Below, piece by piece: positions 14,756 to 60,934 of a stretch of 64,000 nucleotides of DNA. A model generated the notes under the pieces. It made no database searches. It saw only the letters and a list, made by a program, of their open reading frames with translations, and was not told the origin of the DNA. A program made the translations under genes and the position numbers. Positions within the stretch are counted from its first letter, which is position 1. Every line of letters starts with the position of its first letter. The DNA comes from Botryllus schlosseri (lineage: Eukaryota), in assembly GCA_051294905.1 (NCBI GenBank), contig CM119371.1, forward strand, positions 27,096,001 through 27,160,000, written 5' to 3'.

Positions 14756-15290
14756 GTCATTACCAAAGTTGTCATACCTGCTGGCTTGATAACGAGTCTT
14801 TCAGTTTTCGCAGCAAACTTCTAAACTCGGTTAGTTCCTATGATATAATCTTGCTCTTGCAGCATGCAGTCTTTAAGCAGCATCCTAAAATTAGAAGAAA
14901 ATCAGAGAAAGAGAGGCATGGACTTGATTTAAATTTGACTACTTGGTATTAATGCAAAACACGAAACGTTTTCTAGTTGGGCAATATTGACTTTCAGAAT
15001 GGATTCAAAGCGACCGCAGATACAGGTCTGATTAGAAAACCTTGACTTGCCTTATACATGGAAATTAGCAAATTAGCTGGATACTAATGATTACCTTGCA
15101 ATATGTGCTGTTTGATAACGATCCATCACTGTTTCGCAGCATACGGTTTTATGGTTCAATGCGACGTCGACTTGGTTGAAATGCCCTGACATGATCTTGT
15201 ATAGTAGCATCCTAAAATTGAAATTATAACCATGAGATATAAACGTTTAGTTGACAATTTGGATTGGATTCTAAACTCATCTGATATGTG

Positions 15291-22806: not shown

Positions 22807-22879
22807 GCCTAGATAGCGCAGTAGGCAGCGCGTGAGTCTCATAATCTCAAGGTCGTGAGTTCGATCCTCACACGGGGCA
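22807..22879 (+). tRNA. tRNA-Met(CAT), elongator type; acceptor stem has two mismatches (possible pseudogene)
   Basis: GCCTAGATAGCGCAGTAGGCAGCGCGTGAGTCTCATAATCTCAAGGTCGTGAGTTCGATCCTCACACGGGGCA: 73 nt, CAT anticodon, intact D and T arms, closely resembling animal elongator tRNA-Met. Confidence 0.9.
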
Positions 22880-35289: not shown

Positions 35290-35542
35290 ACGAATGTTCG
35301 AATATACCTATACGTTTTCTAGGTTCTCCATCATTGATTGTTGACAAATATACAGTAAACCAGTTCTGTTCCATTGTATTTTGTTATTGAATTTTCATCA
35401 ATTCAAAGCACGACAAGACTGCGATACAATGGAAAAAGACAGGAAGGTTTCGACATGACTTTGAAGCAGCCTTTGAAATTGGACAGTTGGACACCCATCC
35501 GGGCTTAGGCGATGTGAAGAGGGGGCATGCACAAACAGTTGG

Positions 35543-35677
35543 GTGTGGTACTTAAATGCTTTTGATTCCGAGATGAAGAAGTCATTGAAAATTTTTGGGC
35601 AGTGAAGGCAATGGAACTGATAAATGAACTTATTGTAGTTTACGCATATCTTATATGTTTAGGCCACCGAATCTTTT
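35543..35677 (-). mobile_element. Degenerate LINE ORF2 3' fragment inside the ISL2EU spacer
   Basis: Minus-strand YQFHCLHCPKIFNDFFISESKAFKYHT versus YQFHCGRCPEYFNDFFTSESKAHKYNT at ~61247-61330; DNA similarity continues to ~61390. Confidence 0.85.
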
Positions 35678-35755
35678 GAACGGTTAACCTGGTGGTGACC
35701 TCTTGATTTGTGGTGTTTTGAAATGATGTAAATGTTATTGAACTGATACTAGTGT

Positions 35756-37273: not shown

Positions 37274-38039
37274 AATATGACTTTCGAGCACTATAACGTA
37301 CAGTTTAAGCTGCTAGACTAAATGTTTTGGGTCGAGTTACCTTTGTAGCCATCGCATCATTTTCGTCGGCTAAAAGCTATTTGATATCCATATGAATGAT
37401 TTATATTGATATGGATACCAACACCATCCTCGTTGCACGCCAAAAGACGAAATTGGGTCCGTGTTTAGTCCATTCCCATAGTAAAGCATAGAGCAACAAA
37501 ACAGATTAGGGTCGAGTTACCTTTGTCGCCACCGCGTGTTCAAAATGAAGTGGAACAGCCCCATTGACATACGGTAGGCTTTACATATAACTTTGATTCC
37601 AGGATTTTATAGCTGCTTCGAATTGAGTCGAGAAAATATACCAGACAAAGGACACATTGATTGTCTTTAGTACAAAAACTTTGTGACATCTTATCGAAGG
37701 TGTTGAATACTTTTCCTTCATTGCAGTAATTGTAACTGTACTCAATCTTTCAAAATCCTTCATTCCTGATTAAATTTAACTAACAAAATTAATTGGAATT
37801 AGCACGACATGGGAAATGATCTCCATTTGATGTTCCAAGTATAGTTCAGTAAGCAGTAGTTTAAATACAAGTTACACCAGATCTTTACATTCAACAACAC
37901 CTCTGTTCAATGTACACAGATCAAGCCTCTCTTCAGCTCATATAGCATATATAGATAGTTTTTGAGAAAATTGGGACTGCAAAATCCAGCACATTACATA
38001 ATCAATGGTGATATATGAAATGAATAAATAGACTTACAT

Positions 38040-38332
38040 CTACTCCTTATCGCTTCGACATCTTCCTGTCGTTTCATTGTATCGCATTTTTTGTGGTGTA
38101 TTGAACTGATAAAATTGCTAATAAACCAATGATGATGACATTAATGACTGATCTGAATGAAGTTTGTCGCCATTCGCCACACGACATTTCAATCTCCCAG
38201 AAAATAGGTAAATCCAATCCAAATCCTAATCCGTTCAGAAAAAAAATGTCTAATCCAAATCCAATCCAAATCCGACAAAATTTCACAAATCCTGTTTTTT
38301 CAAAACCTAATCCTAATCCATGCTCATCTCTG
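38040..38332. mobile_element. End of a hAT-like element with (ATCCAA/ATCCTA)n subterminal repeats (mirror 59454-59746)
   Basis: Hexamer array ending ..CATGCTCATCTCTG; explains the NPNP ORFs. Confidence 0.55.
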
Positions 38333-39784
38333 GTAGTTGCATGTCATCGGATTATAGTTGCCAGTCGCGATTTGTTTCCAGCTCATTATTATTGCTCTGT
38401 GTATAGTCCATATTTCCCATCTGAGAGGTATCTCAACACTGAAAGCTTTCATGCTATCAAACTATGCGTTGGGATAGCAAACATTCCAGATGCTTCTTTA
38501 GATATATCTCATTATGACGATAAGGAAGGATTGTTCACTATCATCAAAAGGGGCGCGTATAAAGAAGTTTGAGAACCACTGCATGCCTTAGAGGATATCT
38601 CATAGTATCTGCAGTACAAGCATATCTTACAGTACTGTTTTAATTTCATCGTTCAGACAATGCACATTGTACAGTTCTGCGATAATATATTGTCAAATCG
38701 TTTAACGAACAGAATTAGCATGGCTCGCGCTTCGTTCCATGGGCATGTAAATCATACACAACACCCCTCTCGCTACATGACCGGTCGGTGGATTGAACAG
38801 TTATTAATGAATATCGGACCCTTGTCCGGTAGTCGTAATCGCAATGCAGTAGCAATCAGTAAGATCGGGATAACCAACTGACAACTTCACGTACCCAGCG
38901 TCCGTGTCATCATCGTTCACGAGATGATCAGGTAGTAAGTATGCACGCTATCAAAGTAGCATTCCCTCTTGCAGAATAATCAAGTGGTTTTTCTACTTTC
39001 ATCACTAAATTAAAGTGCCAGTTTTCGGACTAGCTCCACTTCTACGTAAAAAAGATGTTGATAAGGTAAAATACTTCTTCCATTGACTCTTTGGTCATTG
39101 GTGAATCAGGATTCATAACGATAGCGGTAGGAAATGCGTGATTGAAATTGTTCAACCCGTCAACCCTCACATTTCTCATTCAAGATTTTGAAAAGTGCAT
39201 GTAATACACAATTTGGACATGCAGAAAGAAATAACATTTGTCCATTCGCGATTCTAATAATACACAACAAAGCCTTTATTTGAATAGACCCATTAATGAA
39301 GTAAATGTGCGAGTTTCTCAGGCCTAGCATAATACAATTGTTATTGTATGGTAGACGATGTTCTTATCCCTTACCAGAGTTTGTCTATCTAGGCAACTAT
39401 TTATTACTGCCTAGAGCAAAACTCAGCATTTTACACTCGGCGGGACAAATTCCGCCCGCGAGAGAGAGAGAGAGAGAGAGGGGAATTTATGGTTCATTGT
39501 ATTATTATTATCATTATAATAATCACACAACAACGACAGTGGCGCTTATCGCCTGTTTAGGCCTTGTGCGCCACGACAATGCTTTTGTATACTCATGACG
39601 ACTTTCATGCTCGCGCACATCCACTCTTCCATTCGCTCTCGCTTTCGTGCGCCCTCTTGCTGGTCTATGCTGCCGACTTCGGAGCTCGGCTCACTCTTTT
39701 TCTGGGCTTTTTCAAGGCGCTGCGTTAACAGCGGGATCGGCGATGAGGAGCCCAGATAAACCTCCGACACATAGAAACATGGCA

Positions 39785-39845
39785 GAGCCGAGACTCGAAC
39801 CACCAACCATTGGTGTCGTGACTGCAGTGTAACTGCGCCACTCAC
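39785..39845 (-). mobile_element. tRNA-derived SINE head (mirror 57941-58001, +)
   Basis: GTGGCGCAGT..ACACCAATGGTTGGTGGTTCGAGTCT; resembles the 30788 head. Confidence 0.45.
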
Positions 39846-40329
39846 TTCCCTATGGTTCATTGTAAAAAAGATAATAACAGATCACTTCCGATACACAACT
39901 AAACTACACATGACTGAAAAGATATTGACGGTTGACACTACGCAAATAATGATCAAAACGAAACAATCGTGATTTAGCTTGGACAAGGTACATGTATTGA
40001 ATGTGCATATGTGCACTTGCAGTCACATAATGTAGGCCTCGCCTGTATACATTATGATTGCTGGATGAAGCGCCATCGAAGTGATGTGGTGATCATCCTG
40101 TTTACTGCAGCTGCATGGAGTAATTGGATATATATTTTTTTAGCGCGCTGAATAATGAATTTTCATAATGAAGTTGTAGGAGCACACGACAAGTCAAATT
40201 AGTTGAGGAAATAGGAAAGATATCTATAATCAAAAAACAAAACTTGTTGGCCGGCACTAGTTCTTATTAGGAATACTCTTTGCTGTTATAGGATTCAATA
40301 AGATAGCTACGATACTAGGTTTAATATAC

Positions 40330-41720
40330 GTAGGGTGGTCGAACACAGACATCTGGAGTATAGACACATCTCATGGTATATTCGATCACTTACCAAAAAC
40401 GGTCGACTGGGTTTGGCACCAAATATATCAGCTACAGCCAAACAACTCGTTACAACGAAATCGGTAGCCAGAGAATCGATTCATATTTGTGTTCTAATCG
40501 AATTAGCGACTGTGGACACTTAGGTTGAGATGTGAGAGTGACATATTGCAGGGCTGGATAAGATTGGTGGTGGGGATTTCGTCCGCGTCACAATGACTAT
40601 CTGGATATCAGAATGCGATCCTCGGGAGCCCCGAAAGAATTTATAATGCAATGCTGTTTGAACCCGCTGAATTTGGCTCCTGACGTCAAGGTTCCGGTTA
40701 TATATAGCCAAGTAACAAGTGGAGAGTTGCGCCAATTACAAACTGTGGTAATGACAGTAAATGCAGTCGGAGACTACGTTCCTCCAATGGTATCAAAGGA
40801 AAAAGACCCAATGGTCGCTTGGCATGCCTACTTCAACCATTGTGCGCTACAGCGACATAGCAAAGTTCTATCAGTGATTGATTAATTTTATGACGCAAAA
40901 GAGAATGTTTCGAGCAAAACAATATTGATTCATGATGGCCATGGTCCACAAAGATGTGCCGAAGCTCTTACATATGCTGCGAATAGCAATGTGGAAATTG
41001 TCAGTCTCCGCCGCATACCGAAGTCGTTACAGTCACCTGTTAAAAACATTTTTTGGGCCTACTACAAGATGACTGCTCGAAGGCGTCTGCGAAATAATCC
41101 CGGAGTGGGTATTTCATGACTTGATGTACCTGAGCTATTCTGCAAGTCTTATATAAAAGTGGCTACTATCATACATGCGGTACAGTCTAAAAATCAGAGA
41201 CCTCGGCTATTCATAGAGTGAAGCACAAATGAGTTTACATTGCTGCCAGCCAGCACGGGAAAACTTATCAACTTGAACATAGTTGGTTTACGAACGGTGA
41301 AAGTAAAACAGGCAATATGCTTCAAGAAATGTTTCCTCTACGCAGCTCGCGTGAGCAAATGCGAACTGATCAGACGACGTCGATGTCATGAATAACTAAA
41401 TTTGAAAAATTTTCTCATCCAACATCACCAATTTTCATATATATTGTAAAAAATACAACACGAAAGGAGACGTGAGACACAGGTGAGGCACAAGCGGGTC
41501 GTGCCTCACCTGTGGCAATGTAATTATGCTCACAAATAGTTCATAATTCATATTAACTGGTGTCGATGAAATGCTATTGTCACACCGATTCCGAAAATCT
41601 GAATATTACCAAGATCAGAGCACTATAACCCCCTCAGAATCGCCTAGCACTGTGAAATTCTGCTTTATTGCTTGCAATGACAGCTCAGAGAAACAATGGC
41701 CAGGTGAGGCATAAAAGAAT
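40330..41720 (+). pseudogene. Decayed pogo/Tigger-like (DDE_1) transposon (mirror ~56066-57456)
   Basis: Fragments TVVMTVNAVGDYVPPMV and IHDGHG..ALTYAANSNVEIVSL..LQ resemble DDE_1 motifs; stops and frameshifts; boundaries approximate. Confidence 0.7.
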
Positions 41721-42741
41721 CTGCTTCAATCAGTACTCACTAACAATGGGACAATCACAGCACAGTGGAGCACGACATTGATGAGAGTGTTGTCTGGATG
41801 ATGGAGTTGCGACGGCCAGTATAGGCTACCCGCTACGTAATGCGGATAAAATACGGTTCCTAACTGATGTGTGTTTTCCATGCATAACTACCTCTAATTG
41901 TGGTATTATTTATGGCCTCTTTGTGGCATTTATGATACGTTTCGACTGAAACGGTTGATTGGTCATTTACACCAGACCGATATCCTACACTACACTATCA
42001 TTCCATATCTACCGACCTGCTAGCACGGCACACTTCTTGGCTTATGTAAGACAGTGTCAGTCCGCGCGTCACCACCCATAAACCTCACCGAACGGTATTA
42101 GAGGATTCCCGAACCACCAAATGCGGTCTACTATCCTAATGACCGATGTAACGTTGTTAGATCTTCATCTTCAGCTTATGTGAGGTCTAAAAGGTTGGGA
42201 ACCACTGCGCTGGTGTGTCGTACCTTAGGAAATATAGAAGTTCTGGATTGATCTCATGGATCATGTTAAGCCAGTTGCCATAACCTGAAATGCTTTTACG
42301 CAGGTCCAGAAAGACCCAGCACACCTTGCCTTTTTACCTTGATTTTTTTTAATTTGTATTGGGTATGTGGGCCAAGTCACCCAATTACCACAAAATGTGA
42401 ACGTGGTCATTTGGTTATTTTATAAATCATGTGACTTGAATTGATGCGATGCTAGCGTGACCCTACTGAATACTTCTGATGTTGCCGGGATCGTGACTCT
42501 CGCGCCCACCTCTCCTTTCAAAGGGGGTAAAGTGCAACAAAAGTAACATAAAACACTCAAATTACACCCTAATTATGAGGATGGGAGGGAATGAGCCGGC
42601 TTAATACCGTTTGGAAGCTTTTAGTAAAGATGTGTAACTTGCTGGTGCGGCACTAGTAGCGCCATAGTTGCTGCGCGGTCCATTTCTGCCCGGGCGATTA
42701 CGCCTTGACCATCGCATGATTGTCAAAACCCCCATTGATAA

Positions 42742-43214
42742 CACTGGTCAACAAAATGAAAATTTTTTCTTTAGACAAAACATCTGAGAGCCGTTTCTGG
42801 GGTTTTTGAGACGGCTGATTACGAATATCACATTAGTTTTGTCAGATTGGCTCTCTGTCAGAAGATATTTATACTCATAAAAAAGCCCGAAATTATTGTA
42901 TTTACCCTTAAGTATTTAACTTGATAGGAAAAAACTCGTAGTTTTTTCTAATTTTATACTGCGCCTAAATAGCTATATGACTTTGAACAACCATCATGTC
43001 ATTCTCAGTCATTCTATCAATATTAACATGACATGATGCGAAATATTTGTTTGTCAAAAAATAAAATGGGGGATTAGGGGAAAAATAGCCCCATGGGTTA
43101 TCTCCACAACGGGAGCCAACTTGAAAAAACTAAGGTCATATTCGGAATCAGTGCCCTTCAGAACCTCCAAAAGCGCTCTTACTTTTTCTGTCTAAAAATA
43201 AGTGTTGACCAGTA
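42742..43214. mobile_element. Chapaev3/Transib-like MITE (mirror 54543-55015)
   Basis: TIRs CACTGGTCAACA / TGTTGACCAGTA; 3-bp TAA on both flanks. Confidence 0.65.
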
Positions 43215-43810
43215 TAATTGATATTTGTCCGGTCCCGAGATGGGCGTGGCCGAATAGGATTATACCTACAGCGTGAGCCCGCGTTAAAATTGCGGTATAC
43301 AAAGGTAGATATTACGTACAGTGAAGTAATGTGAATTTGGAAACGCGTACAAATCACGAACGACCTTTTCTGTCAAATTGGTGTGAAACCGGAAACTGAC
43401 AGTTACCAATTACAATCACACTGACGAAAAAGTATGCCATAGCTCTTGATTATGGTCTTCCAATTATCATAACTATACATTTTTGCTCGGTTAACACAGT
43501 AAATCATACAAACACGTATGTCGCTTTCGTTTTGACTCCTTGTCGTGAAACAGCCGGTGCACGACGACAATAGCGAACTGAAGTGTCCGCATTTGACAAC
43601 ATTATGATCTTCCTAATCGATTAATTTTTCTTAAAACGTAAAATGACTTGAAGAACGTAGTGATGAATACCCAGATTTCAAGGAGGAAAACATAGAGACT
43701 TAGGTGTTGCTCGAGAAACCCAGATCAGGGTGAAAAAAGACAGGAGTGGCGTCCCATCTATCCGGGCATGCTTACCCTGCCTACAATGATTGACGCATCT
43801 CTAAATAATA

Positions 43811-44738
43811 TGGATGGTGAGAACCTCATAAAGGTCCAGGGTCGTGTCAACGAGAACCTTTTTGAAAGGTATATTCTATGTGAACGCGAACGTGAACGTC
43901 ATGACGTCACGTGACGTGATATTACTAATTCCAACCCTACATTTCAGTGAAGTGATAGCCTATATTTAAATATTGTGTACACGGTACTTAGCGACGATTC
44001 GGGCCACATAATGCCGCAATGCTGAAGTAAATATTGAAGTTTTGAACGTCACCAAATGTATCTGGGGTAATCAAATGATATTAAAATCCCATAAAATCAA
44101 CATCTTCCTTCGCTTTGCCAGCAATTTCGACCAGAAATTGTAAGGGAATTTGAGCCTACTCCTTAACGGTCTAGGCCACACCGGACGTTGTATTCGGCGT
44201 CTGAATATTGCTACGATGACATTGAGCAGAGTGTAAAACGGGTTTCTGTTGCTACCGATATTACCCCGAAATTAAGATTGACCCCGTACGCCGGCCAGAT
44301 TTTTTACATCAGACAGCGATATTAATTTTATTGATTGGTTGAATAAGCATAATTCGCTGACTACCTCCATGCAGTACAAAACTCTTGATGTTGTGTGATT
44401 GCGGGTCAAGCTCGCAGCAGAGAGTAACTAAATATTAAAAAACGGCAAGCTGGATATTTCAAGCAAACATTTGTAACAAAGCAAGTAATATTTTTGACAT
44501 TGACAAGGTGCATGTTCGTTAAGTCTTGATTTTCAGGCTGCCAGCGCCATGCAGAGAGTAGCCCGCATTTGAAATGAGATGAATTTCAACCAAAGATGTT
44601 ATTATGAAGCGAAAATTGTAATATATGAAAATGTTCCACAGTGCAGAACCTCCGAAGGCTCTTTTGTGAACGTGAAACTCTAAATTTCTGAGGTTCACAC
44701 ACAGAACGCGAACGTGAACCTCACGTTCACACCATCTA
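43811..44738. mobile_element. Non-autonomous DNA element with GAACGTG subterminal repeats (mirror ~53019-53946)
   Basis: Ends GATGGTGAGAAC / GTTCACACCATC; GAACGCGAACGTGAAC arrays near both ends. Confidence 0.5.
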
Positions 44739-45254
44739 TTGCGACGCGGGAATCGGATATTTCGGCGACAAGCATTTCGCGGCTAGTCGGTTTTCACGTC
44801 GGTCTTTACGTCTAATCGATTGATTGTTGTTTAATTTGATTGGTTAATTTAATTGTCGCGGCGTCCGTTCTCGGTTTTCTTCATGTCTCACGGTTCCTGT
44901 TTCATTTCTCGCCATTTAACTATATTCTGAACAAGCTATTCCGTATTGTATGTTCTGGACTGCTTGTATTTGAAACAGAAGAGACTTGAGATACACAACG
45001 CTTGCTAGTACCCATTGCCAGATTTAGTGTGCAGCAGACAGGATCCCGACACCTGATAAAGCGCCACTCATTGATTTCAGTGCCGCGTCGGAACAATTCA
45101 CAAGAAGCCTATTTAAGCCGATATATTCGATACGCTCTTCGATTCAGGCACCGCATGTGCAGTCTACATTCAAGACTCTTCTGCCCTACGAAGATCGATC
45201 GACCCTGCTCGTCACTAAATCTGTTAATACTTAAGGAGTTTCGTTACGTTTGAG

Positions 45255-48200
45255 ATGTCGTTTGTTAAATCTCCAACGGATTCTCACAAGTCTCCAACCT
45301 TGGCACCCACTTGGAAGCCACTAGCTAAGATGACGGTCGACGATTTACGATCCGAGTTACAAGTTCTTGGCGAAGCTACCAGTGGAAGCAAAGCTGTATT
45401 GACAGAGCGATTAAGAAAAATCCGCGATTCCAACAAACCCTCGCAAAAGAAAGAGTCGACGCCCTCTCCATTGAGCACCACTGAAAATCCATCTGAACTG
45501 GTCATGCTTTTTCAGATGATGAAGCATCAGCAAGATCTCGATCGTCAGCAGCAGCAATTAGATCGTGAAGCTGATCGCCAGCAGCAGCAATTAGATCGTG
45601 AAGCTGATCGCCGGCAGCAGCAATTAGATCGTGAAGATGCCGACCGCAAGTTTCAGTTGCAGCTTGAAGAGCTCAAGCAGAGACAGGTGCTGGAGCGTGA
45701 GGAAAGCGAAAGACGGTTTCAACTGCAACTGGAAGAAATTCGACAGAAGTCATCAAAAGACCAACTCAACTCGGGCCACCCATCGGCAAGTAACGGCGAT
45801 CCATGTCTACCTGAGGTCATTATAAGAAAATTCAGACGTATGCATGCCGAAGTTGTCGAGTCTTTGCAAGCGCTGGAAAATAAATATCGGAACCCCACCT
45901 CTTTCGAAGAGATCAACGTCTTCATACGATCAGTAGATATAGCAATGACCGATCTCAAGACCTTCGTTGATGCCAAAATCGACCAGCTTAACGAGGGTGA
46001 TTTAAAGACCGAAATCGTTGATGGCATGAGAAGCTCGAAAGAAATTTATCTGGCACACCTCCCTCTTGCCAAATCGAAATCTGCATCACTTAAAGCTGCC
46101 GAGGATGCCGAGAAAGCCGCCGGATCGCTCCCCAGTGGAATAGTGCCGCCTACATTCAACGGCGACATTTTGACATTTCCCTCATTTTGGGAGTCATTCG
46201 AGCCGCTGGTTCACGAAAATCCAAAGGTCAGTCGGTTTTACAAAATTACTTATTTAAAGGCGGCTCTCAAAGGATCGTCATCCGGCCTTCTTAATGGGTT
46301 CCCTTCGACGGCCGTGAGTTATGAGCCTGCCGTGGACGCTGTCCTTAAAAGGTACGGGAAGAAACAAGCCATAGTGAGAAATCACATCAAAGACTTGCTG
46401 CAAGGTGAGAAGGTCGAATTTAAGATCGATAAAGTCAGGAGGCTACTCGATGCCGCCACTGCAAAAAGGGCGATATTAACGCAGTATGACGTCTCTTGGG
46501 ACCAACTGTTTACACAGGTACTCGAGTCTCAGCTGCCGGGTACGTTGCGCGAACGTTGGATCAGGAAAATTAGTCCTATGATCGATGACGATGAAGTTCC
46601 TGATTCCGATCTCTTGTTCGAATTTCTGACAACCGAGTTGGCGACGATGGAGTCCTTGCAGTCGCAGAGTGGGCGTCGCCCTACTGACGCACGTGACAAG
46701 CCGCAACATAAAGATAAACTGAGTAGTTGCGTTGCCGGTGAAGTTGAAAAATCGTTTTCTGCGCAATCCCTGGTAACGCAGTCCATAACGCCATGCTGTA
46801 GCTACTGCTCGAGTGCTCATATGTTAAAATACTGTGACGAGTTTTTGAATTTGACTCCCCCCCCCCCCCAGCGAATGGCTGACTTGGTCATGAATAAGCC
46901 TGGAAAAGTATGTTTCAGATGCTTATCTCCGAAAGGGCATGAAGGTCATCCGAAGACATTCCACCAATGTAAGGAGCGTTGTTCCGTCGCGGGCTGTGGG
47001 AAACCCCATCACGAATTGCTACACGTTTCTGGGGAACCATTGGGTGACGTCAAGTGTATGGTCTCAACCATTGACAAACCTCTTTCCACCCCTGTTTTGC
47101 GAGATGCGGACATCGACACATTACTGCCTACTGCGTTAGGAAGCATCAACCACAATGGCGAAAGGAAACAGGTTAGAATCGCATTCGACTCTTTTTCCCA
47201 GAAGAGCTTTGTAACCCGTGGACTAGCAGATTCGTTGAAGCTAACGCCAACTAAAAGCGATTGCGTGGACATTAGTGGATTTGGAGGTAATTCTGCTTCA
47301 AGTGTTGTGGACGTTGTAAAATTCACGCTAGAGTCCACTGATGGCTTCGAAAACGTTAGCGTTGAGGCTTACGTTCAAGAAGGCGTGATTTGTGCGCCTT
47401 TAAGAAATGTAGATCTGTGCGCTAGTCAAATTTCTCACTTAGAGGGTCTGAACCTTGCCGACCCCCTTCCAAGGAATAATGGGACCATTGATATTCATCT
47501 CGGAGGGCGATACTATTTTTCGCTGATGCAGGGAGAGGTGATTAGTCCTGATGTTCCGGAAATGGGGCCTTATGCGATCAAAACTATATTTGGCTGGGTG
47601 CTGGCTGGTCCTTGCGTTAAACTGGAACAAGATAGGAGTAACACGTCTAGTTGTCTACTTCTCACAACTACACCAAATGACGATTCATTGAAGTCAGATC
47701 CATGGCAGTCGTTGAACGACAAGTTGGAAAGATTTTGGGATCAAGATAGCATCGGTATTTGTGACAAGAAGACTATTCCTACTGCAGAGGAACGGGATGC
47801 CATGGAACAGTTCGATAGGTCGGTTCAGTTTGACGGCTCTAAATACGTTGTTTCCTTGCCATTCAGACGTGACGTGCCGGATTTGAAATCCAATTACCGC
47901 GAGGCCTATTCAAGATTGCTTTCAGCAGAGAAGACGCTGCGCAGGAATCCTGAGAAGTCGCGAAACTACGACGCCGCAATCATGGAATATGAGAAAAACG
48001 GGTTCTCGAGAAAATTAACTCAGGACGAGTTCGAAGAGATTGGTAAGCTCCCTCATTACTTTGTCCCGCACCACCCGGTATTCAAAGAATCCAGTACCTC
48101 CACTAAGCTTCGCATAGTATTCGACGCGAGTGCTCGAGATTGCCAAGGTTTGTCACTGAACGACTGTCTACTCAAGGGGCCGAACTTACTACCTGATATT

Positions 48201-49335
48201 GCGTCAGTGTTGCGTCAGTGCGTCAGTGCGTCAGGATTGCGCTCAGCGGGGATATCAAAAAGATGTTTTGCCAAACAGGTGTTGTTCCAGACCATCAAAG
48301 GTACCAATTATATCTTTGGCGTAATTGTGACTCTACTCGACCACCCGATGTTTATGTTATGACCCGGGTTATGTTCGGCATTACCTCCAGTCCGTTTCTT
48401 GCAATTCAGACCATTCTGCATCACTCTCGTTTGCAGGAAAAGGATGCAGAAATTTCGAACATAATTGAGAAAAACATGTACGTAGACGATGTTCATCTTG
48501 GCGGTGATAACGTTGACGAAGTGCTCGCATTGCAACGCCGATTAGTTGATTTCTTTCGGGCAGGTGGATGGACGTTGGTCAAATTTGGATCGAATAGCCG
48601 TGAGTTGATCGAACAAATTCCGAAGCACGCACGATTGCCAAACTGCGAGCTGGATTTAGACGATGCTAAGTGTGGCGAAGCCTCTTCGTTAGGGCTGAAA
48701 TGGCATGCTCTTGATGATCTGATGTATTGTAATGTGACTCCAAAACTCTGCGAACAAGACAAATTGGTTACTAAAAGAACCATGCTGAGCAAAGTCAGTC
48801 AAATTTATGATGTTTTCGGGTATTTTGCAGCCTTTGTAGTTCGCGTCAAGATTCTTCTCCAGGATTTATGGAGAAAGAAATTGGATTGGAACGATGAAGT
48901 CGATGAAGTCACAGCCACCAAGTACCGTCAATGGACAGAGGAACTGGCCTCGCTTGAATCTATAAAGATACCAAGGTATCTATTCGTTGGGCTTCTTGGT
49001 TTGAAGAACATTCAACTCCACGGATTCGCCGATGCATCTGAAGCCGCTTACGGCGCCGTCCTATACCTCAGAGCCATGGACGAGGAAGGTACAGTAGTGA
49101 TTCGTTACCTGATGTCGAAAACGAGAGTCGCTCCTTTGAAAGCGATGTCCGTTGCGCGACTAGAACTAATGTCGGCACATTGTCTCGCTAAACTAGTTCG
49201 GTATTGCTTAGACGCTTGGTCCTCGGTTCTAACTGTCGACAACATTTATTTGTGGTTAGACTCGCAGATTGCTCTCGCCTGGCTCGCCAAGCCGAGTACA
49301 TACTGGAAAACCTTCGTGAGAAATCGAGTGCAGGA
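45255..49335 (+). pseudogene. BEL/Pao gag-pol with N-terminal SAP-like motif; frameshift at ~48210-48235; truncated at the fold-back junction
   Basis: ORF 45255-48362 and ORF 48218+ overlap at a TGCGTCAG micro-tandem. Confidence 0.9.
45538..45645 (+). repeat. 33-bp in-frame tandem repeat x3 in gag (DRQQQQLDREA)
   Basis: GATCG(T/C)C(A/G)GCAGCAGCAATTAGATCGTGAAG repeated; mirrored at ~52112-52219. Confidence 0.9.
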
Positions 49336-52300
49336 AGTGATGCAGAATGGTCTGAATTGCAAGAAACGGACTGGAGGTAATGCCGAACATAACCCGGGTC
49401 ATAACATAAACATCGGGTGGTCGAGTAGAGTCACAATTACGCCAAAGATATAATTGGTACCTTTGATGGTCTGGAACAACACCTGTTTGGCAAAACATCT
49501 TTTTGATATCCCCGCTGAGCGCAATCCTGACGCACTGACGCACTGACGCAACACTGACGCAATATCAGGTAGTAAGTTCGGCCCCTTGAGTAGACAGTCG
49601 TTCAGTGACAAACCTTGGCAATCTCGAGCACTCGCGTCGAATACTATGCGAAGCTTAGTGGAGGTACTGGATTCTTTGAATACCGGGTGGTGCGGGACAA
49701 AGTAATGAGGGAGCTTACCAATCTCTTCGAACTCGTCCTGAGTTAATTTTCTCGAGAACCCGTTTTTCTCATATTCCATGATTGCGGCGTCGTAGTTTCG
49801 CGACTTCTCAGGATTCCTGCGCAGCGTCTTCTCTGCTGAAAGCAATCTTGAATAGGCCTCGCGGTAATTGGATTTCAAATCCGGCACGTCACGTCTGAAT
49901 GGCAAGGAAACAACGTATTTAGAGCCGTCAAACTGAACCGACCTATCGAACTGTTCCATGGCATCCCGTTCCTCTGCAGTAGGAATAGTCTTCTTGTCAC
50001 AAATACCGATGCTATCTTGATCCCAAAATCTTTCCAACTTGTCGTTCAACGACTGCCATGGATCTGACTTCAATGAATCGTCATTTGGTGTAGTTGTGAG
50101 AAGTAGACAACTAGACGTGTTACTCCTATCTTGTTCCAGTTTAACGCAAGGACCAGCCAGCACCCAGCCAAATATAGTTTTGATCGCATAAGGCCCCATT
50201 TCCGGAACATCAGGACTAATCACCTCTCCCTGCATCAGCGAAAAATAGTATCGCCCTCCGAGATGAATATCAATGGTCCCATTATTCCTTGGAAGGGGGT
50301 CGGCAAGGTTCAGACCCTCTAAGTGAGAAATTTGACTAGCGCACAGATCTACATTTCTTAAAGGCGCACAAATCACGCCTTCTTGAACGTAAGCCTCAAC
50401 GCTAACGTTTTCGAAGCCATCAGTGGACTCTAGCGTGAATTTTACAACGTCCACAACACTTGAAGCAGAATTACCTCCAAATCCACTAATGTCCACGCAA
50501 TCGCTTTTAGTTGGCGTTAGCTTCAACGAATCTGCTAGTCCACGGGTTACAAAGCTCTTCTGGGAAAAAGAGTCGAATGCGATTCTAACCTGTTTCCTTT
50601 CGCCATTGTGGTTGATGCTTCCTAACGCAGTAGGCAGTAATGTGTCGATGTCCGCATCTCGCAATACAGGGGTGGAAAGAGGTTTGTCAATGGTTGAGAC
50701 CATACACTTGACGTCACCCAATGGTTCCCCAGAAACGTGTAGCAATTCGTGATGGGGTTTCCCACAGCCCGCGACGGAACAACGCTCCTTACATTGGTGG
50801 AATGTCTTCGGATGACCTTCATGCCCTTTCGGAGATAAGCATCTGAAACATACTTTTCCAGGCTTATTCATGACCAAGTCAGCCATTCGCTGGGGGGGGG
50901 AGTCAAATTCAAAAACTCGTCACAGTATTTTAACATATGAGCACTCGAGCAGTAGCTACAGCATGGCGTTATGGACTGCGTTACCAGGGATTGCGCAGAA
51001 AACGATTTTTCAACTTCACCGGCAACGCAACTACTCAGTTTATCTTTATGTTGCGGCTTGTCACGTGCGTCAGTAGGGCGACGCCCACTCTGCGACTGCA
51101 AGGACTCCATCGTCGCCAACTCGGTTGTCAGAAATTCGAACAAGAGATCGGAATCAGGAACTTCATCGTCATCGATCATAGGACTAATTTTCCTGATCCA
51201 ACGTTCGCGCAACGTACCCGGCAGCTGAGACTCGAGTACCTGTGTAAACAGTTGGTCCCAAGAGACGTCATACTGCGTTAATATCGCCCTTTTTGCAGTG
51301 GCGGCATCGAGTAGCCTCCTGACTTTATCGATCTTAAATTCGACCTTCTCACCTTGCAGCAAGTCTTTGATGTGATTTCTCACTATGGCTTGTTTCTTCC
51401 CGTACCTTTTAAGGACAGCGTCCACGGCAGGCTCATAACTCACGGCCGTCGAAGGGAACCCATTAAGAAGGCCGGATGACGATCCTTTGAGAGCCGCCTT
51501 TAAATAAGTAATTTTGTAAAACCGACTGACCTTTGGATTTTCGTGAACCAGCGGCTCGAATGACTCCCAAAATGAGGGAAATGTCAAAATGTCGCCGTTG
51601 AATGTAGGCGGCACTATTCCACTGGGGAGCGATCCGGCGGCTTTCTCGGCATCCTCGGCAGCTTTAAGTGATGCAGATTTCGATTTGGCAAGAGGGAGGT
51701 GTGCCAGATAAATTTCTTTCGAGCTTCTCATGCCATCAACGATTTCGGTCTTTAAATCACCCTCGTTAAGCTGGTCGATTTTGGCATCAACGAAGGTCTT
51801 GAGATCGGTCATTGCTATATCTACTGATCGTATGAAGACGTTGATCTCTTCGAAAGAGGTGGGGTTCCGATATTTATTTTCCAGCGCTTGCAAAGACTCG
51901 ACAACTTCGGCATGCATACGTCTGAATTTTCTTATAATGACCTCAGGTAGACATGGATCGCCGTTACTTGCCGATGGGTGGCCCGAGTTGAGTTGGTCTT
52001 TTGATGACTTCTGTCGAATTTCTTCCAGTTGCAGTTGAAACCGTCTTTCGCTTTCCTCACGCTCCAGCACCTGTCTCTGCTTGAGCTCTTCAAGCTGCAA
52101 CTGAAACTTGCGGTCGGCATCTTCACGATCTAATTGCTGCTGCCGGCGATCAGCTTCACGATCTAATTGCTGCTGCTGGCGATCAGCTTCACGATCTAAT
52201 TGCTGCTGCTGACGATCGAGATCTTGCTGATGCTTCATCATCTGAAAAAGCATGACCAGTTCAGATGGATTTTCAGTGGTGCTCAATGGAGAGGGCGTCG

Positions 52301-52502
52301 ACTCTTTCTTTTGCGAGGGTTTGTTGGAATCGCGGATTTTTCTTAATCGCTCTGTCAATACAGCTTTGCTTCCACTGGTAGCTTCGCCAAGAACTTGTAA
52401 CTCGGATCGTAAATCGTCGACCGTCATCTTAGCTAGTGGCTTCCAAGTGGGTGCCAAGGTTGGAGACTTGTGAGAATCCGTTGGAGATTTAACAAACGAC
52501 AT
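49336..52502 (-). pseudogene. Inverted duplicate of BEL/Pao gag-protease-partial RT (element copy extends to ~53020)
   Basis: Near-identical translation to the left copy; extra frameshift at the G9 run 50892-50900; ends before YVDD. Confidence 0.92.
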
Positions 52503-55500
52503 CTCAAACGTAACGAAACTCCTTAAGTATTAACAGATTTAGTGACGAGCAGGGTCGATCGATCTTCGTAGGGCAGAAGAGTCTTGAATGTAGACTGCAC
52601 ATGCGGTGCCTGAATCGAAGAGCGTATCGAATATATCGGCTTAAATAGGCTTCTTGTGAATTGTTCCGACGCGGCACTGAAATCAATGAGTGGCGCTTTA
52701 TCAGGTGTCGGGATCCTGTCTGCTGCACACTAAATCTGGCAATGGGTACTAGCAAGCGTTGTGTATCTCAAGTCTCTTCTGTTTCAAATACAAGCAGTCC
52801 AGAACATACAATACGGAATAGCTTGTTCAGAATATAGTTAAATGGCGAGAAATGAAACAGGAACCGTGAGACATGAAGAAAACCGAGAACGGACGCCGCG
52901 ACAATTAAATTAACCAATCAAATTAAACAACAATCAATCGATTAGACGTAAAGACCGACGTGAAAACCGACTAGCCGCGAAATGCTTGTCGCCGAAATAT
53001 CCGATTCTCGCGTCGCAATAGATGGTGTGAACGTGAGGTTCACGTTCGCGTTCTGTGTGTGAACCTCAGAAATTTAGAGTTTCACGTTCACAAAAGAGCC
53101 TTCGGAGGTTCTGCACTGTGGAACATTTTCATATATTACAATTTTCGCTTCATAATAACATCTTTGGTTGAAATTCATCTCATTTCAAATGCGGGCTACT
53201 CTCTGCATGGCGCTGGCAGCCTGAAAATCAAGACTTAACGAACATGCACCTTGTCAATGTCAAAAATATTACTTGCTTTGTTACAAATGTTTGCTTGAAA
53301 TATCCAGCTTGCCGTTTTTTAATATTTAGTTACTCTCTGCTGCGAGCTTGACCCGCAATCACACAACATCAAGAGTTTTGTACTGCATGGAGGTAGTCAG
53401 CGAATTATGCTTATTCAACCAATCAATAAAATTAATATCGCTGTCTGATGTAAAAAATCTGGCCGGCGTACGGGGTCAATCTTAATTTCGGGGTAATATC
53501 GGTAGCAACAGAAACCCGTTTTACACTCTGCTCAATGTCATCGTAGCAATATTCAGACGCCGAATACAACGTCCGGTGTGGCCTAGACCGTTAAGGAGTA
53601 GGCTCAAATTCCCTTACAATTTCTGGTCGAAATTGCTGGCAAAGCGAAGGAAGATGTTGATTTTATGGGATTTTAATATCATTTGATTACCCCAGATACA
53701 TTTGGTGACGTTCAAAACTTCAATATTTACTTCAGCATTGCGGCATTATGTGGCCCGAATCGTCGCTAAGTACCGTGTACACAATATTTAAATATAGGCT
53801 ATCACTTCACTGAAATGTAGGGTTGGAATTAGTAATATCACGTCACGTGACGTCATGACGTTCACGTTCGCGTTCACATAGAATATACCTTTCAAAAAGG
53901 TTCTCGTTGACACGACCCTGGACCTTTATGAGGTTCTCACCATCCATATTATTTAGAGATGCGTCAATCATTGTAGGCAGGGTAAGCATGCCCGGATAGA
54001 TGGGACGCCACTCCTGTCTTTTTTCACCCTGATCTGGGTTTCTCGAGCAACACCTAAGTCTCTATGTTTTCCTCCTTGAAATCTGGGTATTCATCACTAC
54101 GTTCTTCAAGTCATTTTACGTTTTAAGAAAAATTAATCGATTAGGAAGATCATAATGTTGTCAAATGCGGACACTTCAGTTCGCTATTGTCGTCGTGCAC
54201 CGGCTGTTTCACGACAAGGAGTCAAAACGAAAGCGACATACGTGTTTGTATGATTTACTGTGTTAACCGAGCAAAAATGTATAGTTATGATAATTGGAAG
54301 ACCATAATCAAGAGCTATGGCATACTTTTTCGTCAGTGTGATTGTAATTGGTAACTGTCAGTTTCCGGTTTCACACCAATTTGACAGAAAAGGTCGTTCG
54401 TGATTTGTACGCGTTTCCAAATTCACATTACTTCACTGTACGTAATATCTACCTTTGTATACCGCAATTTTAACGCGGGCTCACGCTGTAGGTATAATCC
54501 TATTCGGCCACGCCCATCTCGGGACCGGACAAATATCAATTATACTGGTCAACACTTATTTTTAGACAGAAAAAGTAAGAGCGCTTTTGGAGGTTCTGAA
54601 GGGCACTGATTCCGAATATGACCTTAGTTTTTTCAAGTTGGCTCCCGTTGTGGAGATAACCCATGGGGCTATTTTTCCCCTAATCCCCCATTTTATTTTT
54701 TGACAAACAAATATTTCGCATCATGTCATGTTAATATTGATAGAATGACTGAGAATGACATGATGGTTGTTCAAAGTCATATAGCTATTTAGGCGCAGTA
54801 TAAAATTAGAAAAAACTACGAGTTTTTTCCTATCAAGTTAAATACTTAAGGGTAAATACAATAATTTCGGGCTTTTTTATGAGTATAAATATCTTCTGAC
54901 AGAGAGCCAATCTGACAAAACTAATGTGATATTCGTAATCAGCCGTCTCAAAAACCCCAGAAACGGCTCTCAGATGTTTTGTCTAAAGAAAAAATTTTCA
55001 TTTTGTTGACCAGTGTTATCAATGGGGGTTTTGACAATCATGCGATGGTCAAGGCGTAATCGCCCGGGCAGAAATGGACCGCGCAGCAACTATGGCGCTA
55101 CTAGTGCCGCACCAGCAAGTTACACATCTTTACTAAAAGCTTCCAAACGGTATTAAGCCGGCTCATTCCCTCCCATCCTCATAATTAGGGTGTAATTTGA
55201 GTGTTTTATGTTACTTTTGTTGCACTTTACCCCCTTTGAAAGGAGAGGTGGGCGCGAGAGTCACGATCCCGGCAACATCAGAAGTATTCAGTAGGGTCAC
55301 GCTAGCATCGCATCAATTCAAGTCACATGATTTATAAAATAACCAAATGACCACGTTCACATTTTGTGGTAATTGGGTGACTTGGCCCACATACCCAATA
55401 CAAATTAAAAAAAATCAAGGTAAAAAGGCAAGGTGTGCTGGGTCTTTCTGGACCTGCGTAAAAGCATTTCAGGTTATGGCAACTGGCTTAACATGATCCA

Positions 55501-58500
55501 TGAGATCAATCCAGAACTTCTATATTTCCTAAGGTACGACACACCAGCGCAGTGGTTCCCAACCTTTTAGACCTCACATAAGCTGAAGATGAAGATCTAA
55601 CAACGTTACATCGGTCATTAGGATAGTAGACCGCATTTGGTGGTTCGGGAATCCTCTAATACCGTTCGGTGAGGTTTATGGGTGGTGACGCGCGGACTGA
55701 CACTGTCTTACATAAGCCAAGAAGTGTGCCGTGCTAGCAGGTCGGTAGATATGGAATGATAGTGTAGTGTAGGATATCGGTCTGGTGTAAATGACCAATC
55801 AACCGTTTCAGTCGAAACGTATCATAAATGCCACAAACAGCAACAACAACAACGCAGGCTATGTAAGAGGCCATAAATAATACCACAATTAGAGGTAGTT
55901 ATGCATGGAAAACACACATCAGTTAGGAACCGTATTTTATCCGCATTACGTAGCGGGTAGCCTATACTGGCCGTCGCAACTCCATCATCCAGACAACACT
56001 CTCATCAATGTCGTGCTCCACTGTGCTGTGATTGTCCCATTGTTAGTGAGTACTGATTGAAGCAGATTCTTTTATGCCTCACCTGGCCATTGTTTCTCTG
56101 AGCTGTCATTGCAAGCAATAAAGCAGAATTTCACAGTGCTAGGCGATTCTGAGGGGGTTATAGTGCTCTGATCTTGGTAATATTCAGATTTTCGGAATCG
56201 GTGTGACAATAGCATTTCATCGACACCAGTTAATATGAATTATGAACTATTTGTGAGCATAATTACATTGCCACAGGTGAGGCACGACCCGCTTGTGCCT
56301 CACCTGTGTCTCACGTCTCCTTTCGTGTTGTATTTTTTACAATATATATGAAAATTGGTGATGTTGGATGAGAAAATTTTTCAAATTTAGTTATTCATGA
56401 CATCGACGTCGTCTGATCAGTTCGCATTTGCTCACGCGAGCTGCGTAGAGGAAACATTTCTTGAAGCATATTGCCTGTTTTACTTTCACCGTTCGTAAAC
56501 CAACTATGTTCAAGTTGATAAGTTTTCCCGTGTTGGCTGGCAGCAATGTAAACTCATTTGTGCTTCACTCTATGAATAGCCGAGGTCTCTGATTTTTAGA
56601 CTGTACCGCATGTATGATAGTAGCCACTTTTATATAAGACTTGCAGAATAGCTCAGGTACATCAAGTCATGAAATACCCACTCCGGGATTATTTCGCAGA
56701 CGCCTTCGAGCAGTCATCTTGTAGTAGGCCCAAAAAATGTTTTTAACAGGTGACTGTAACGACTTCGGTATGCGGCGGAGACTGACAATTTCCACATTGC
56801 TATTCGCAGCATATGTAAGAGCTTCGGCACATCTTTGTGGACCATGGCCATCATGAATCAATATTGTTTTGCTCGAAACATTCTCTTTTGCGTCATAAAA
56901 TTAATCAATCACTGATAGAACTTTGCTATGTCGCTGTAGCGCACAATGGTTGAAGTAGGCATGCCAAGCGACCATTGGGTCTTTTTCCTTTGATACCATT
57001 GGAGGAACGTAGTCTCCGACTGCATTTACTGTCATTACCACAGTTTGTAATTGGCGCAACTCTCCACTTGTTACTTGGCTATATATAACCGGAACCTTGA
57101 CGTCAGGAGCCAAATTCAGCGGGTTCAAACAGCATTGCATTATAAATTCTTTCGGGGCTCCCGAGGATCGCATTCTGATATCCAGATAGTCATTGTGACG
57201 CGGACGAAATCCCCACCACCAATCTTATCCAGCCCTGCAATATGTCACTCTCACATCTCAACCTAAGTGTCCACAGTCGCTAATTCGATTAGAACACAAA
57301 TATGAATCGATTCTCTGGCTACCGATTTCGTTGTAACGAGTTGTTTGGCTGTAGCTGATATATTTGGTGCCAAACCCAGTCGACCGTTTTTGGTAAGTGA
57401 TCGAATATACCATGAGATGTGTCTATACTCCAGATGTCTGTGTTCGACCACCCTACGTATATTAAACCTAGTATCGTAGCTATCTTATTGAATCCTATAA
57501 CAGCAAAGAGTATTCCTAATAAGAACTAGTGCCGGCCAACAAGTTTTGTTTTTTGATTATAGATATCTTTCCTATTTCCTCAACTAATTTGACTTGTCGT
57601 GTGCTCCTACAACTTCATTATGAAAATTCATTATTCAGCGCGCTAAAAAAATATATATCCAATTACTCCATGCAGCTGCAGTAAACAGGATGATCACCAC
57701 ATCACTTCGATGGCGCTTCATCCAGCAATCATAATGTATACAGGCGAGGCCTACATTATGTGACTGCAAGTGCACATATGCACATTCAATACATGTACCT
57801 TGTCCAAGCTAAATCACGATTGTTTCGTTTTGATCATTATTTGCGTAGTGTCAACCGTCAATATCTTTTCAGTCATGTGTAGTTTAGTTGTGTATCGGAA
57901 GTGATCTGTTATTATCTTTTTTACAATGAACCATAGGGAAGTGAGTGGCGCAGTTACACTGCAGTCACGACACCAATGGTTGGTGGTTCGAGTCTCGGCT
58001 CTGCCATGTTTCTATGTGTCGGAGGTTTATCTGGGCTCCTCATCGCCGATCCCGCTGTTAACGCAGCGCCTTGAAAAAGCCCAGAAAAAGAGTGAGCCGA
58101 GCTCCGAAGTCGGCAGCATAGACCAGCAAGAGGGCGCACGAAAGCGAGAGCGAATGGAAGAGTGGATGTGCGCGAGCATGAAAGTCGTCATGAGTATACA
58201 AAAGCATTGTCGTGGCGCACAAGGCCTAAACAGGCGATAAGCGCCACTGTCGTTGTTGTGTGATTATTATAATGATAATAATAATACAATGAACCATAAA
58301 TTCCCCTCTCTCTCTCTCTCTCTCTCGCGGGCGGAATTTGTCCCGCCGAGTGTAAAATGCTGAGTTTTGCTCTAGGCAGTAATAAATAGTTGCCTAGATA
58401 GACAAACTCTGGTAAGGGATAAGAACATCGTCTACCATACAATAACAATTGTATTATGCTAGGCCTGAGAAACTCGCACATTTACTTCATTAATGGGTCT

Positions 58501-59746
58501 ATTCAAATAAAGGCTTTGTTGTGTATTATTAGAATCGCGAATGGACAAATGTTATTTCTTTCTGCATGTCCAAATTGTGTATTACATGCACTTTTCAAAA
58601 TCTTGAATGAGAAATGTGAGGGTTGACGGGTTGAACAATTTCAATCACGCATTTCCTACCGCTATCGTTATGAATCCTGATTCACCAATGACCAAAGAGT
58701 CAATGGAAGAAGTATTTTACCTTATCAACATCTTTTTTACGTAGAAGTGGAGCTAGTCCGAAAACTGGCACTTTAATTTAGTGATGAAAGTAGAAAAACC
58801 ACTTGATTATTCTGCAAGAGGGAATGCTACTTTGATAGCGTGCATCCTTACTACCTGATCATCTCGTGAACGATGATGACACGGACGCTGGGTACGTGAA
58901 GTTGTCAGTTGGTTATCCCGATCTTACTGATTGCTACTGCATTGCGATTACGACTACCGGACAAGGGTCCGATATTCATTAATAACTGTTCAATCCACCG
59001 ACCGGTCATGTAGCGAGAGGGGTGTTGTGTATGATTTACATGCCCATGGAACGAAGCGCGAGCCATGCTAATTCTGTTCGTTAAACGATTTGACAATATA
59101 TTATCGCAGAACTGTACAATGTGCATTGTCTGAACGATGAAATTAAAACAGTACTGTAAGATATGCTTGTACTGCAGATACTATGAGATATCCTCTAAGG
59201 CATGCAGTGGTTCTCAAACTTCTTTATACGCGCCCCTTTTGATGATAGTGAACAATCCTTCCTTATCGTCATAATGAGATATATCTAAAGAAGCATCTGG
59301 AATGTTTGCTATCCCAACGCATAGTTTGATAGCATGAAAGCTTTCAGTGTTGAGATACCTCTCAGATGGGAAATATGGACTATACACAGAGCAATAATAA
59401 TGAGCTGGAAACAAATCGCGACTGGCAACTATAATCCGATGACATGCAACTACCAGAGATGAGCATGGATTAGGATTAGGTTTTGAAAAAACAGGATTTG
59501 TGAAATTTTGTCGGATTTGGATTGGATTTGGATTAGACATTTTTTTTCTGAACGGATTAGGATTTGGATTGGATTTACCTATTTTCTGGGAGATTGAAAT
59601 GTCGTGTGGCGAATGGCGACAAACTTCATTCAGATAAGTCATTAATGTCATCATCATTGGTTTATTAGCAATTTTATCAGTTCAATACACCACAAAAAAT
59701 GCGATACAATGAAACGACAGGAAGATGTCGAAGCGATAAGGAGTAG
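49336..59746. repeat. Right arm of giant inverted repeat (10,411 bp)
   Basis: The 25-bp length difference is explained by 29 extra bp at 55837-55865 and a C13-versus-G9 homopolymer; at least 5 substitutions seen. Confidence 0.97.
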
Positions 59747-59779: not shown

Positions 59780-60934
59780 CAGAGGTCTCAAACTCAAATG
59801 TCCTAGCGGGCCAGTTTTCCAGTTCTGACGACGCCGCGGGCCGCAGCATATATATGGGGTATTATATGTCTTTCCAAGTAGGCCTTATTTGGCGGGATGG
59901 AATTGTCCTATTGAAAGTGAGCCGATCCAGCAGGCTGACAATAAACACACATCATCAAAATGTGATTCACTCTAGCATCAATTTAGGCCTGGCAGGAAAA
60001 ATCATCACAATTATAACTATTTGAACAGAATTCTTATATTAATTATAAAATATAGACACAAGATGAGCGGACAAACGTATGATGTCATCATTAAAGTTAT
60101 CGCCTTTTGATATTTCGAATTTAACAGAGTGATAATAGAGACTGATCTGATATCACAACATTTTTGGGTTGGGCAGTGTAATTACAATCCTGGATTCGGG
60201 TATACTCCTGATATAAGTAGGCTATTAATCTCATGGTCAAATATCTTCGAAAATAGGAGCGGAAAAATATATAAATGTAGCATCAATACATTAATGAATG
60301 CGTCCTAGTAATATAAATGTCGGAACGCCGAACGACCCATCGTTGGAGTGTACGACTACGGTACTCGGTACCTTGAAGTGGCCTTCAAAACATGGTTCAT
60401 GCAGCGACTAAGCGACCTAAGATGTAACTAATAGATTGCCACTGGTTGCCATGATGACTACTTGCTTAGTTAGCGAAATACCAAACTGCGGCCTTCCGAT
60501 TTATTTATTCCCATGACACGTGATTAGTTTGTTGCGTTCATGGTTCTAACAAATTCACGGCATTCCGAGTCCACTCTCGAGTCATTTTCATTTTTCCATC
60601 GAGTCAGCCCGAGTTCGAGTAATTTTAAGAAAGGTCGCGTCCAGATCCAACTCATAAATTTCAGTCACGAATCGTCCAAGGGTCAGGTTTTATCATCATG
60701 AAGTGAAAATGTGGCGAACTAGTGAATGTTCCACTGCATGGTAACGTTTGCAATTGATGCGATAGTGAAGTTTGATGAATAGTTTCTGGCCTTCAGAGCA
60801 ATTTTAGAGGGAATTTACACTTTATAACCTGAAAAGATATATGTGACACTATAGATTGTCAAATTAAGAAAAATCAAAAATGTCGTCGCGGGCCGCACAA
60901 AATGCTCTGGCGCGCCGCGAGTTTGAGACCTCTG
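59780..60934. mobile_element. hAT MITE
   Basis: TIR CAGAGGTCTCAAACTC at both ends; perfect TSD GCCTAGGC. Confidence 0.92.

Follow-up and report, generated by a model that had tools for sequence, protein, structure and literature searches.

Does an inverted pair of transposon fragments in an animal genome silence its own family, in the manner of the Mu killer (Muk) locus of maize, or is it a by-product of chromosomal repair? The question is raised by a 64,000-nucleotide stretch of the Botryllus schlosseri genome (assembly GCA_051294905.1, contig CM119371.1, positions 27,096,001 to 27,160,000 of the forward strand), hereafter the window, in which the 5' part of a BEL/Pao long terminal repeat (LTR) retrotransposon is found twice, inverted around a short spacer. 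An earlier note had proposed that a hairpin RNA from this locus may silence the family. We consider it probable that the locus is instead a real, young, and probably rare inverted duplication with an adjacent deletion, which caught a dead BEL/Pao copy and is most likely silent and near-neutral.

Self-comparison of the window yielded one dominant inverted repeat, 38040-48425 against 59746-49336, with 99.6% identity over 10,415 columns, far above the chance level. With both arms and the spacer, the palindromic unit measures 21.7 kb and is composed as follows.

38040-48425, plus strand: left arm, 10,386 bp; outer 6.7 kb made up of various repeats with low-copy DNA, inner part the BEL/Pao 5' part
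48426-49335, plus strand: single-copy spacer, 910 bp; native continuation of the left element, present once in the window
49336-59746, minus strand: right arm, 10,411 bp; reverse complement of the left arm

The BEL/Pao share of the arms is 44737-48425 on the plus strand (3689 bp) and 49336-53020 on the minus strand (3685 bp), about 3.7 kb each. The other two thirds of each arm, the outer 6.7 kb, consists of other repeats and low-copy DNA. This implies that a chromosomal rearrangement took in the element along with its surroundings and did not single it out. The span proposed earlier, 44737-53020, does hold the inverted BEL/Pao halves but covers only the inner third of a structure whose arms reach 38040 and 59746; the 910-nucleotide loop proposed with it is the single-copy spacer. 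Global alignment of the arms revealed five substitutions (38150, 38940, 41253, 44749, and 47096 in left-arm coordinates), a 29-bp indel (55838-55866 in the right arm), and a small change in the length of a C run near 50900. The substitutions amount to 5 in 10,382 bases, a divergence of 0.048% (95% confidence interval, 0.016 to 0.11%).

The coding content of the palindrome, including the reverse transcriptase (RT) frames, is arranged as follows.

45255-48362, plus strand: gag (SAP, DUF1759), aspartic protease, and N-terminal part of RT; frame break near 48200-48235, common to both arms
48197-49335, plus strand: second frame, with the remaining RT and the Peptidase_A17/RNase H region; ends at the joint, before integrase
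49336-52502, minus strand: right gag-protease-RT copy; extra frameshift near 50900; ends before the RT catalytic motif

The earlier note had read these as two truncated copies. However, the left pol frame runs unbroken through the spacer to 49335, so that the spacer is the left element's own native continuation, and both arms share the same flank. The RT catalytic motif occurs a single time in the window, at 48479, inside the spacer. Since the RT lesion near 48200-48235 is common to both arms, the frameshift predates the duplication. Two independent BEL insertions, or a snap-back complementary DNA formed during reverse transcription and then integrated, would fit a symmetry centre that lies inside the element. 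Yet the arms have in common the 5' insertion site, 6.7 kb of non-BEL flank, and the RT frameshift, and a snap-back molecule would stop at the LTR ends. The flank duplication refutes this account, whose chance of being right is practically nil. Judged by its frames and flanks, the locus holds a single element that has been folded back on itself rather than a pair of insertions.

Pfam domains in the element are SAP, DUF1759, aspartic protease, and Peptidase_A17, and the gag-protease-RT-RNase H order with DUF1759 and Peptidase_A17 is a BEL/Pao trait. Among the 120 of 786 matches listed (from 4516 candidates), the best relatives are BEL/Pao polyproteins with 51 to 57% identity in RT/RNase H. The left copy aligns to residues 39-971 and 979-1350 of one of these, P0005, in two frames, and the right copy aligns to its residues 39-520, 520-971, and 979-1041 in three. 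The relatives P0001-P0009 have the same order of DUF1759 gag, aspartic protease, RT, and Peptidase_A17. Full-length relatives carry an integrase after RNase H, two direct LTRs, and a target-site duplication, none of which is present here. The integrase domains of P0005 occupy residues 1558-1930; no integrase match was found in the window, and the alignments of four full-length relatives to it all stop by the end of RNase H, which in P0005 is residue 1350 of 1986. The window holds just two instances of the putative LTR, one in each arm, and the earlier claim that both integrase and 3' LTR are missing thus holds. On the evidence of its coding sequence, the element is a truncated BEL/Pao derivative and a dead copy, with a frameshifted RT, no integrase, and no 3' LTR. 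The SAP domain lies at the gag N terminus (window 45321-45420) and is also found in P0002, P0005, P0014, and P0020, marking a SAP-bearing BEL/Pao lineage. A metagenome scan for relatives gave 43 candidate stretches, none of which was confirmed.

We compared four of 24 listed sequencing runs, a list with no small-RNA library in it, with 37400-49375: the DNA runs X1 and X4 (sample S1) and X5 (sample S2), and the raw reads of the bulk RNA run X23. The contig comparison lists 15 of 259 joints and 24 rows of pieces, with 57,786 pieces and 3133 loose ends beyond these. S1 may be the source of the assembly, in which case it is not independent evidence that the palindrome occurs elsewhere. The contigs bear on three boundaries.

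49335/49336, no strand: new inner joint (fold-back point), with 1 bp of microhomology
38039/38040, no strand: new outer joint, with truncated repeats on both sides and no exact microhomology
59746/59747, no strand: native outer boundary, where the arm-end repeat continues into the right flank

One family contig from X5 (record 23) stays on the element as far as 49336 and then goes on with 1218 other letters. The family thus has a 3' part, and with record 23 taken as the native continuation, the microhomology at the inner joint is 1 bp. A shared 5-mer near this joint was dismissed as chance (null, 0.40). Behind 38039, loose ends with other letters were found in four X1, six X4, and four X5 contigs. 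Because these contigs continue differently, the left outer boundary joins two truncated repeats and is new. In contrast, seven X1 contigs leave the window sequence before 38040, and their consensus there corresponds to the reverse complement of the sequence from 59747 on, which makes the right outer boundary native. At 38028-38046, the partners of the outer joint share a 7-mer offset by 7 nucleotides (null rate, 0.024; one of two joints tested), which is possibly a trace of microhomology-guided repair.

These boundaries give the locus the layout of a fold-back inverted duplication: an unduplicated spacer, here of 910 bp, separates the inverted copies, the DNA past it is lost, and a further joint, which the loose ends place at 38039/38040, heals the other end. 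Human fold-back inverted duplications share the inverted arms, the unduplicated spacer of sub-kilobase to kilobase size, the loss beyond it, and the second healing joint; in the excerpted text of Hermetz et al. 2014 (PMC3907307), spacers range from 766 to 70,466 bp, and 13 of 21 junctions have 2 to 8 bp of inverted microhomology. The spacer here falls within that range. Against those human cases, the B. schlosseri locus differs in having 10-kb arms, an interstitial position, and a host whose alleles are about 5% different.

Both arm states are present in S1 read-derived contigs at two of the seven differing sites. At 38940, X1 contigs carry the left-arm base and X4 contigs carry the right-arm base, as does S2; the 29-bp insertion is absent from X1 record 3 and present in X4 record 11. 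The low-copy DNA of the arm is represented by one contig per run, and S1 contigs differ from the left arm there by 0 to 1 bases over pieces of 0.8 to 1.8 kb. Thus, two real arm variants exist. The S2 allele (38366-43840, run X5) is 5.0% diverged from the window, with 200 differences over four pieces. A second S2 contig aligns solely in a patch at 40307, so homologues in this region can be too dissimilar to align. In its own right, 38366-43840 is a region of very high sequence and structural polymorphism, with one S2 allele 5% diverged and the other haplotype patchy. By a crude coalescent estimate, two homologues differing by 0.048% where alleles differ by 5% are expected about 1 to 2% of the time. 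Two arms on one haplotype account for the contig data more simply than two near-identical homologues do.

These data bear directly on an assembly artefact, in which two near-identical haplotypes or dispersed duplicates would have been joined in reverse via a fold-back chimeric read, and the inner joint would be unreal. The joint is absent among the listed contigs, as such an artefact predicts, and the S1 arm depth resembles two copies in total, which one copy per homologue would give likewise; contig depth is not a copy number, and the expected drop from arm to spacer in S1 (about one part in eight) is within scatter. Oxford Nanopore genomic libraries hold about 0.55 to 0.6% fold-back reads, some with kilobases between the segments, whereas the same source has them virtually absent from high-fidelity (HiFi) libraries (PMC12870357), which would count against an artefact if this assembly came from HiFi data. 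However, a single fold-back molecule predicts one allele set and arm differences that are read errors, while two real sets exist; a join of two real copies is still compatible with this. Two homologues so alike would be rare by the coalescent estimate. The outer flanks also differ, with one new joint 11.3 kb from the centre, both of which a single rearrangement would explain, and the window contains no N. We judge an artefact unlikely, and it is the alternative that we take most seriously. We infer physical continuity across both new joints, the repair route, and the age.

Several points weigh against a fold-back duplication that is real and silent. Intrastrand priming is marked by at least 2 bp of inverted microhomology at the inner joint; we found 1 bp, below the 2 to 8 bp typical of the human junctions. 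At 41253 and the C run, only the left state was matched, and three of the seven arm differences fall outside the rows listed. The central joint was seen in the window sequence alone: no contig or read crosses 49335/49336 or 38039/38040 among the 15 of 259 joints and 24 piece rows listed, where short junction contigs would rank lower, so that this absence is neither support nor refutation. As for silence, X23 is from another sample, was read to about 6 in 100, and is blind to small or germline-restricted RNAs.

The putative LTRs and the insertion site are mirrored in the two arms.

43810-44736, no strand: high-copy non-autonomous DNA-transposon-like repeat; start approximate; the BEL element stands at its end; mirrored at about 53021-53947
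44737-45214, plus strand: putative 5' LTR of the left copy; ends predicted, with the 5' end at 44737-44740
52543-53020, minus strand: mirror putative LTR, aimed inward; 99.8% identity over 478 bp

The repeat at 43810-44736 has very high depth and loose ends at 44736; the similarity of its ends was judged by eye. The LTR was placed from the end of this repeat at 44736 in 311 to 347 contigs per run, from a depth at 44919-45005 of about 2 to 5 times the internal depth (high also in the bin 45000-45399), and from a CA at 45213-45214 that is followed by a site complementary to 45019-45029. Positions 45019-45029 and 45213-45223 form a perfect 11-nucleotide inverted pair (24 nucleotides at 79%), mirrored in the right arm, whose second member lies at the predicted LTR end, 30 nucleotides before the gag ATG; the LTR end was placed partly by this pair, and the two are not independent. 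In the 5' part of the element, we saw no primer site of the TGG type for transfer RNA (tRNA). A tRNA-type primer site near 45027-45044 was considered and rejected, as high depth persists beyond it and the self-complementary site after 45214 fits better. The element 5' ends had been described as facing each other head-to-head. The putative LTRs are indeed outermost and aimed inward, but the arrangement is convergent, or tail-to-tail in the usual gene terms.

DNA transposons flank the palindrome on both sides. A transposon at 32852-37565 has 240-bp terminal inverted repeats (98%), a THAP and DDE_Tnp_4 transposase on the minus strand, and a SAP/SWIM/YqaJ gene on the plus strand; from its layout, we take it to be ISL2EU-like. 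At 59780-60934, 33 bp beyond the right arm, lies a non-autonomous element with a perfect 8-bp target-site duplication, presumably hAT-like from its end motifs. The palindrome could on this basis be a mobile giant foldback element, or a nearby DNA transposon could have made it by alternative transposition, as in the Ac killers: between the right arm and the hAT-like element lie 33 bp, and the ISL2EU-like element ends 474 bp outside the left arm. However, mobile foldback elements have many copies, terminal repeats at their outer ends, and a target-site duplication. None of these was found: the arm DNA is low-copy, its single contig per run does not fit a mobile family, and the outer ends cut through repeats with no target-site duplication. 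An 8-bp duplication of its own brackets the hAT-like element, which adjoins the native boundary, and neither new joint lies at a transposon terminus. A mobile or transposition-made origin is therefore largely refuted and, in our estimate, very improbable.

We favour a fold-back-type inverted duplication with deletion, which would have arisen in the following way. The BEL/Pao element inserted at the end of the high-copy repeat and gained the RT frameshift that both arms share. A break would have followed at the end of the element's RNase H region, and the broken end would have been joined to the same DNA, reversed, 910 bp further back. Either hairpin capping together with replication or the fusion of sister ends resected to different lengths may have done this; with 1 bp of microhomology, priming is not shown, the two routes cannot be discriminated, and fusion is an equal candidate. 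One arm would then have been cut 10.4 kb from the centre and healed onto another truncated repeat at 38039/38040. The adjacent deletion removed the integrase and the 3' LTR along with further sequence; comparison with P0005 suggests a loss of about 2.4 kb or more. The pathway described in yeast (PMC10622511) proceeds by hairpin capping, replication, breakage, and healing. The product could fold as a hairpin if transcribed, but it is most likely a selectively near-neutral by-product without control over the family. In age it seems young. Set against the S2 allele, the arm divergence is about 1% as large; set against the family majority contigs, which are 0.8 to 1.1% distant, it is about 1/20. 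Gene conversion between arms can make a duplication look younger.

If the locus were a functional killer, transcription from the left LTR would cross the spacer and enter the antisense arm, convergent double-stranded RNA (dsRNA) could come from the right LTR, and Dicer or the PIWI-interacting RNA (piRNA) pathway would make small RNAs that silence the family in trans. A stem of up to about 3.7 kb had been proposed; a transcript from the left LTR could give a hairpin of about 3.5 kb. The layout is that of Muk and the Ac killers, which, in the excerpted text of 10.1101/2020.01.07.897926, share an inverted duplication of part of the element, a promoter nearby or of their own from which dsRNA is transcribed, small interfering RNAs (siRNAs) of 21 to 24 nucleotides, and heritable silencing in trans; one Ac killer uses the element's own promoter. 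The first of these traits, a natural inverted duplication of a partial transposable element, is found here, with the arms supported by read-derived contigs and the joint as it stands in the window. PMC3440606, which describes Muk, itself questions the long-hairpin model for that locus. A comparable action has been proposed for a nested, antisense copy of EVD, an LTR element of plants (PMC11624286, excerpted text).

The plus strand would permit such a transcript. After an AATAAA at 45879, inside gag, the next is at 53425; with no canonical AATAAA between 45885 and 53425, a left-LTR transcript could cross the whole stem.

53425-53430, plus strand: first canonical AATAAA after the stem; a read-through transcript from the left LTR could end near here

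Possible targets also exist, in the form of other family copies that are about 1% diverged, look intact, and continue 3'. The ratio of element to arm depth is about 3.8 to 3.9 in S1 and 7.4 in S2, as in a low-copy family.

On the other side, a right-LTR transcript would meet a minus-strand AATAAA at 49245, about 90 nucleotides past the joint. No flanking gene for read-through was found: the nearest gene-like open reading frames are two C-type lectins that end about 9 kb before the left arm, and no host gene in or beside the arms was found by Pfam among frames of at least 75 amino acids, a threshold that short exons may have escaped (6 of 85 further frames matched, namely, two lectins, three DNA-transposon parts, and one long interspersed nuclear element RT). 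Family depth relative to the presumed single-copy depth is about equal in S1 and S2, a weak point against silencing. In C. elegans, palindromic transcripts are edited by ADAR, wild-type editing keeps such hairpins from RNA interference, and siRNAs arise mainly once editing is lost, as far as the excerpted text of PMC7084138 goes.

No transcript was seen in the bulk RNA. Among 12.9 million X23 records, only two of the 11 bins over 45000-49375 had any depth, at 0.66 and 0.09; the remaining nine were empty, as were the six low-copy arm bins 38600, 39000, 40200, 40600, 41000, and 41400. The reads fell on high-copy repeats, with 99% continuing into other sequence. This weakens the killer reading and does not refute it: the sample may lack the allele, and a long-RNA library is blind to small RNAs. 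The Mu killer analogy of the earlier note is sound in geometry; killer function gains no support from the X23 run, with next to no reads, from the search for a read-through gene, which found none, or from arms that are two thirds non-BEL. By our analysis, the geometry is Mu killer-like, yet the locus cannot be filed as a killer locus, a function that we hold to be quite improbable.

Muk and the Ac killers p1-ww-id1/id4 have, as excerpted, the same inverted 5' part with the 5' ends outside and aimed inward, the 3' part lost, and relatives elsewhere. Unlike these plant DNA transposons, the element here is an animal LTR retrotransposon whose arms include 6.7 kb of unrelated flank; it was not made by alternative transposition, no read-through gene was found, and it is a putative silencer by shape alone. 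The Arabidopsis EVD case (PMC11624286) has, in the text cited, the same inverted LTR-element sequence and a possible hairpin or convergent dsRNA, with a role that is hypothetical there too; EVD arose by self-insertion in a plant mutant line, whereas the B. schlosseri locus would have arisen by chromosomal repair. The listings from full-text searches of an open-access library showed no animal LTR-retrotransposon killer locus.

Elsewhere in the window, two tandem C-type lectin-like coding regions lie on the plus strand at 21573-22028 and 28440-28988, 69% alike at the DNA level, with an AATAAA near 29043 after the second. Three older self-palindromic repeats of 0.6 to 0.7 kb (10848-11524, 15288-15941, and 18131-18717) have 75 to 82% arm identity, and two of them lie inside a 1.2-kb direct repeat. 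At 40540-41200, within the left arm, what we take by eye to be a decayed, presumably pogo-like transposase remnant had no Pfam match. tRNA-like sequences at 5977-6050 (Lys) and 22807-22879 (Met), possibly heads of short interspersed nuclear elements, were the only matches in an Rfam scan, and both are distant from the locus.

Were the killer reading true, maize Mu killer would have a natural equivalent in an animal, directed at an LTR retrotransposon: a repair accident within a BEL/Pao copy would have put a 3.5-kb hairpin RNA under the element's own LTR promoter, and the whole low-copy family would be silenced in the germline of carriers. This would mean that the maize route to de novo silencing, an inverted partial duplication, also works on animal LTR retrotransposons, and that de novo transposon silencing had been caught outside piRNA-cluster trapping. 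Because the allele seems to be young and not shared by S2, carriers and non-carriers could be compared directly. Taken together, the locus appears to be a clean, datable case of a known rearrangement class that is killer-shaped by chance, and it offers a ready-made test case.

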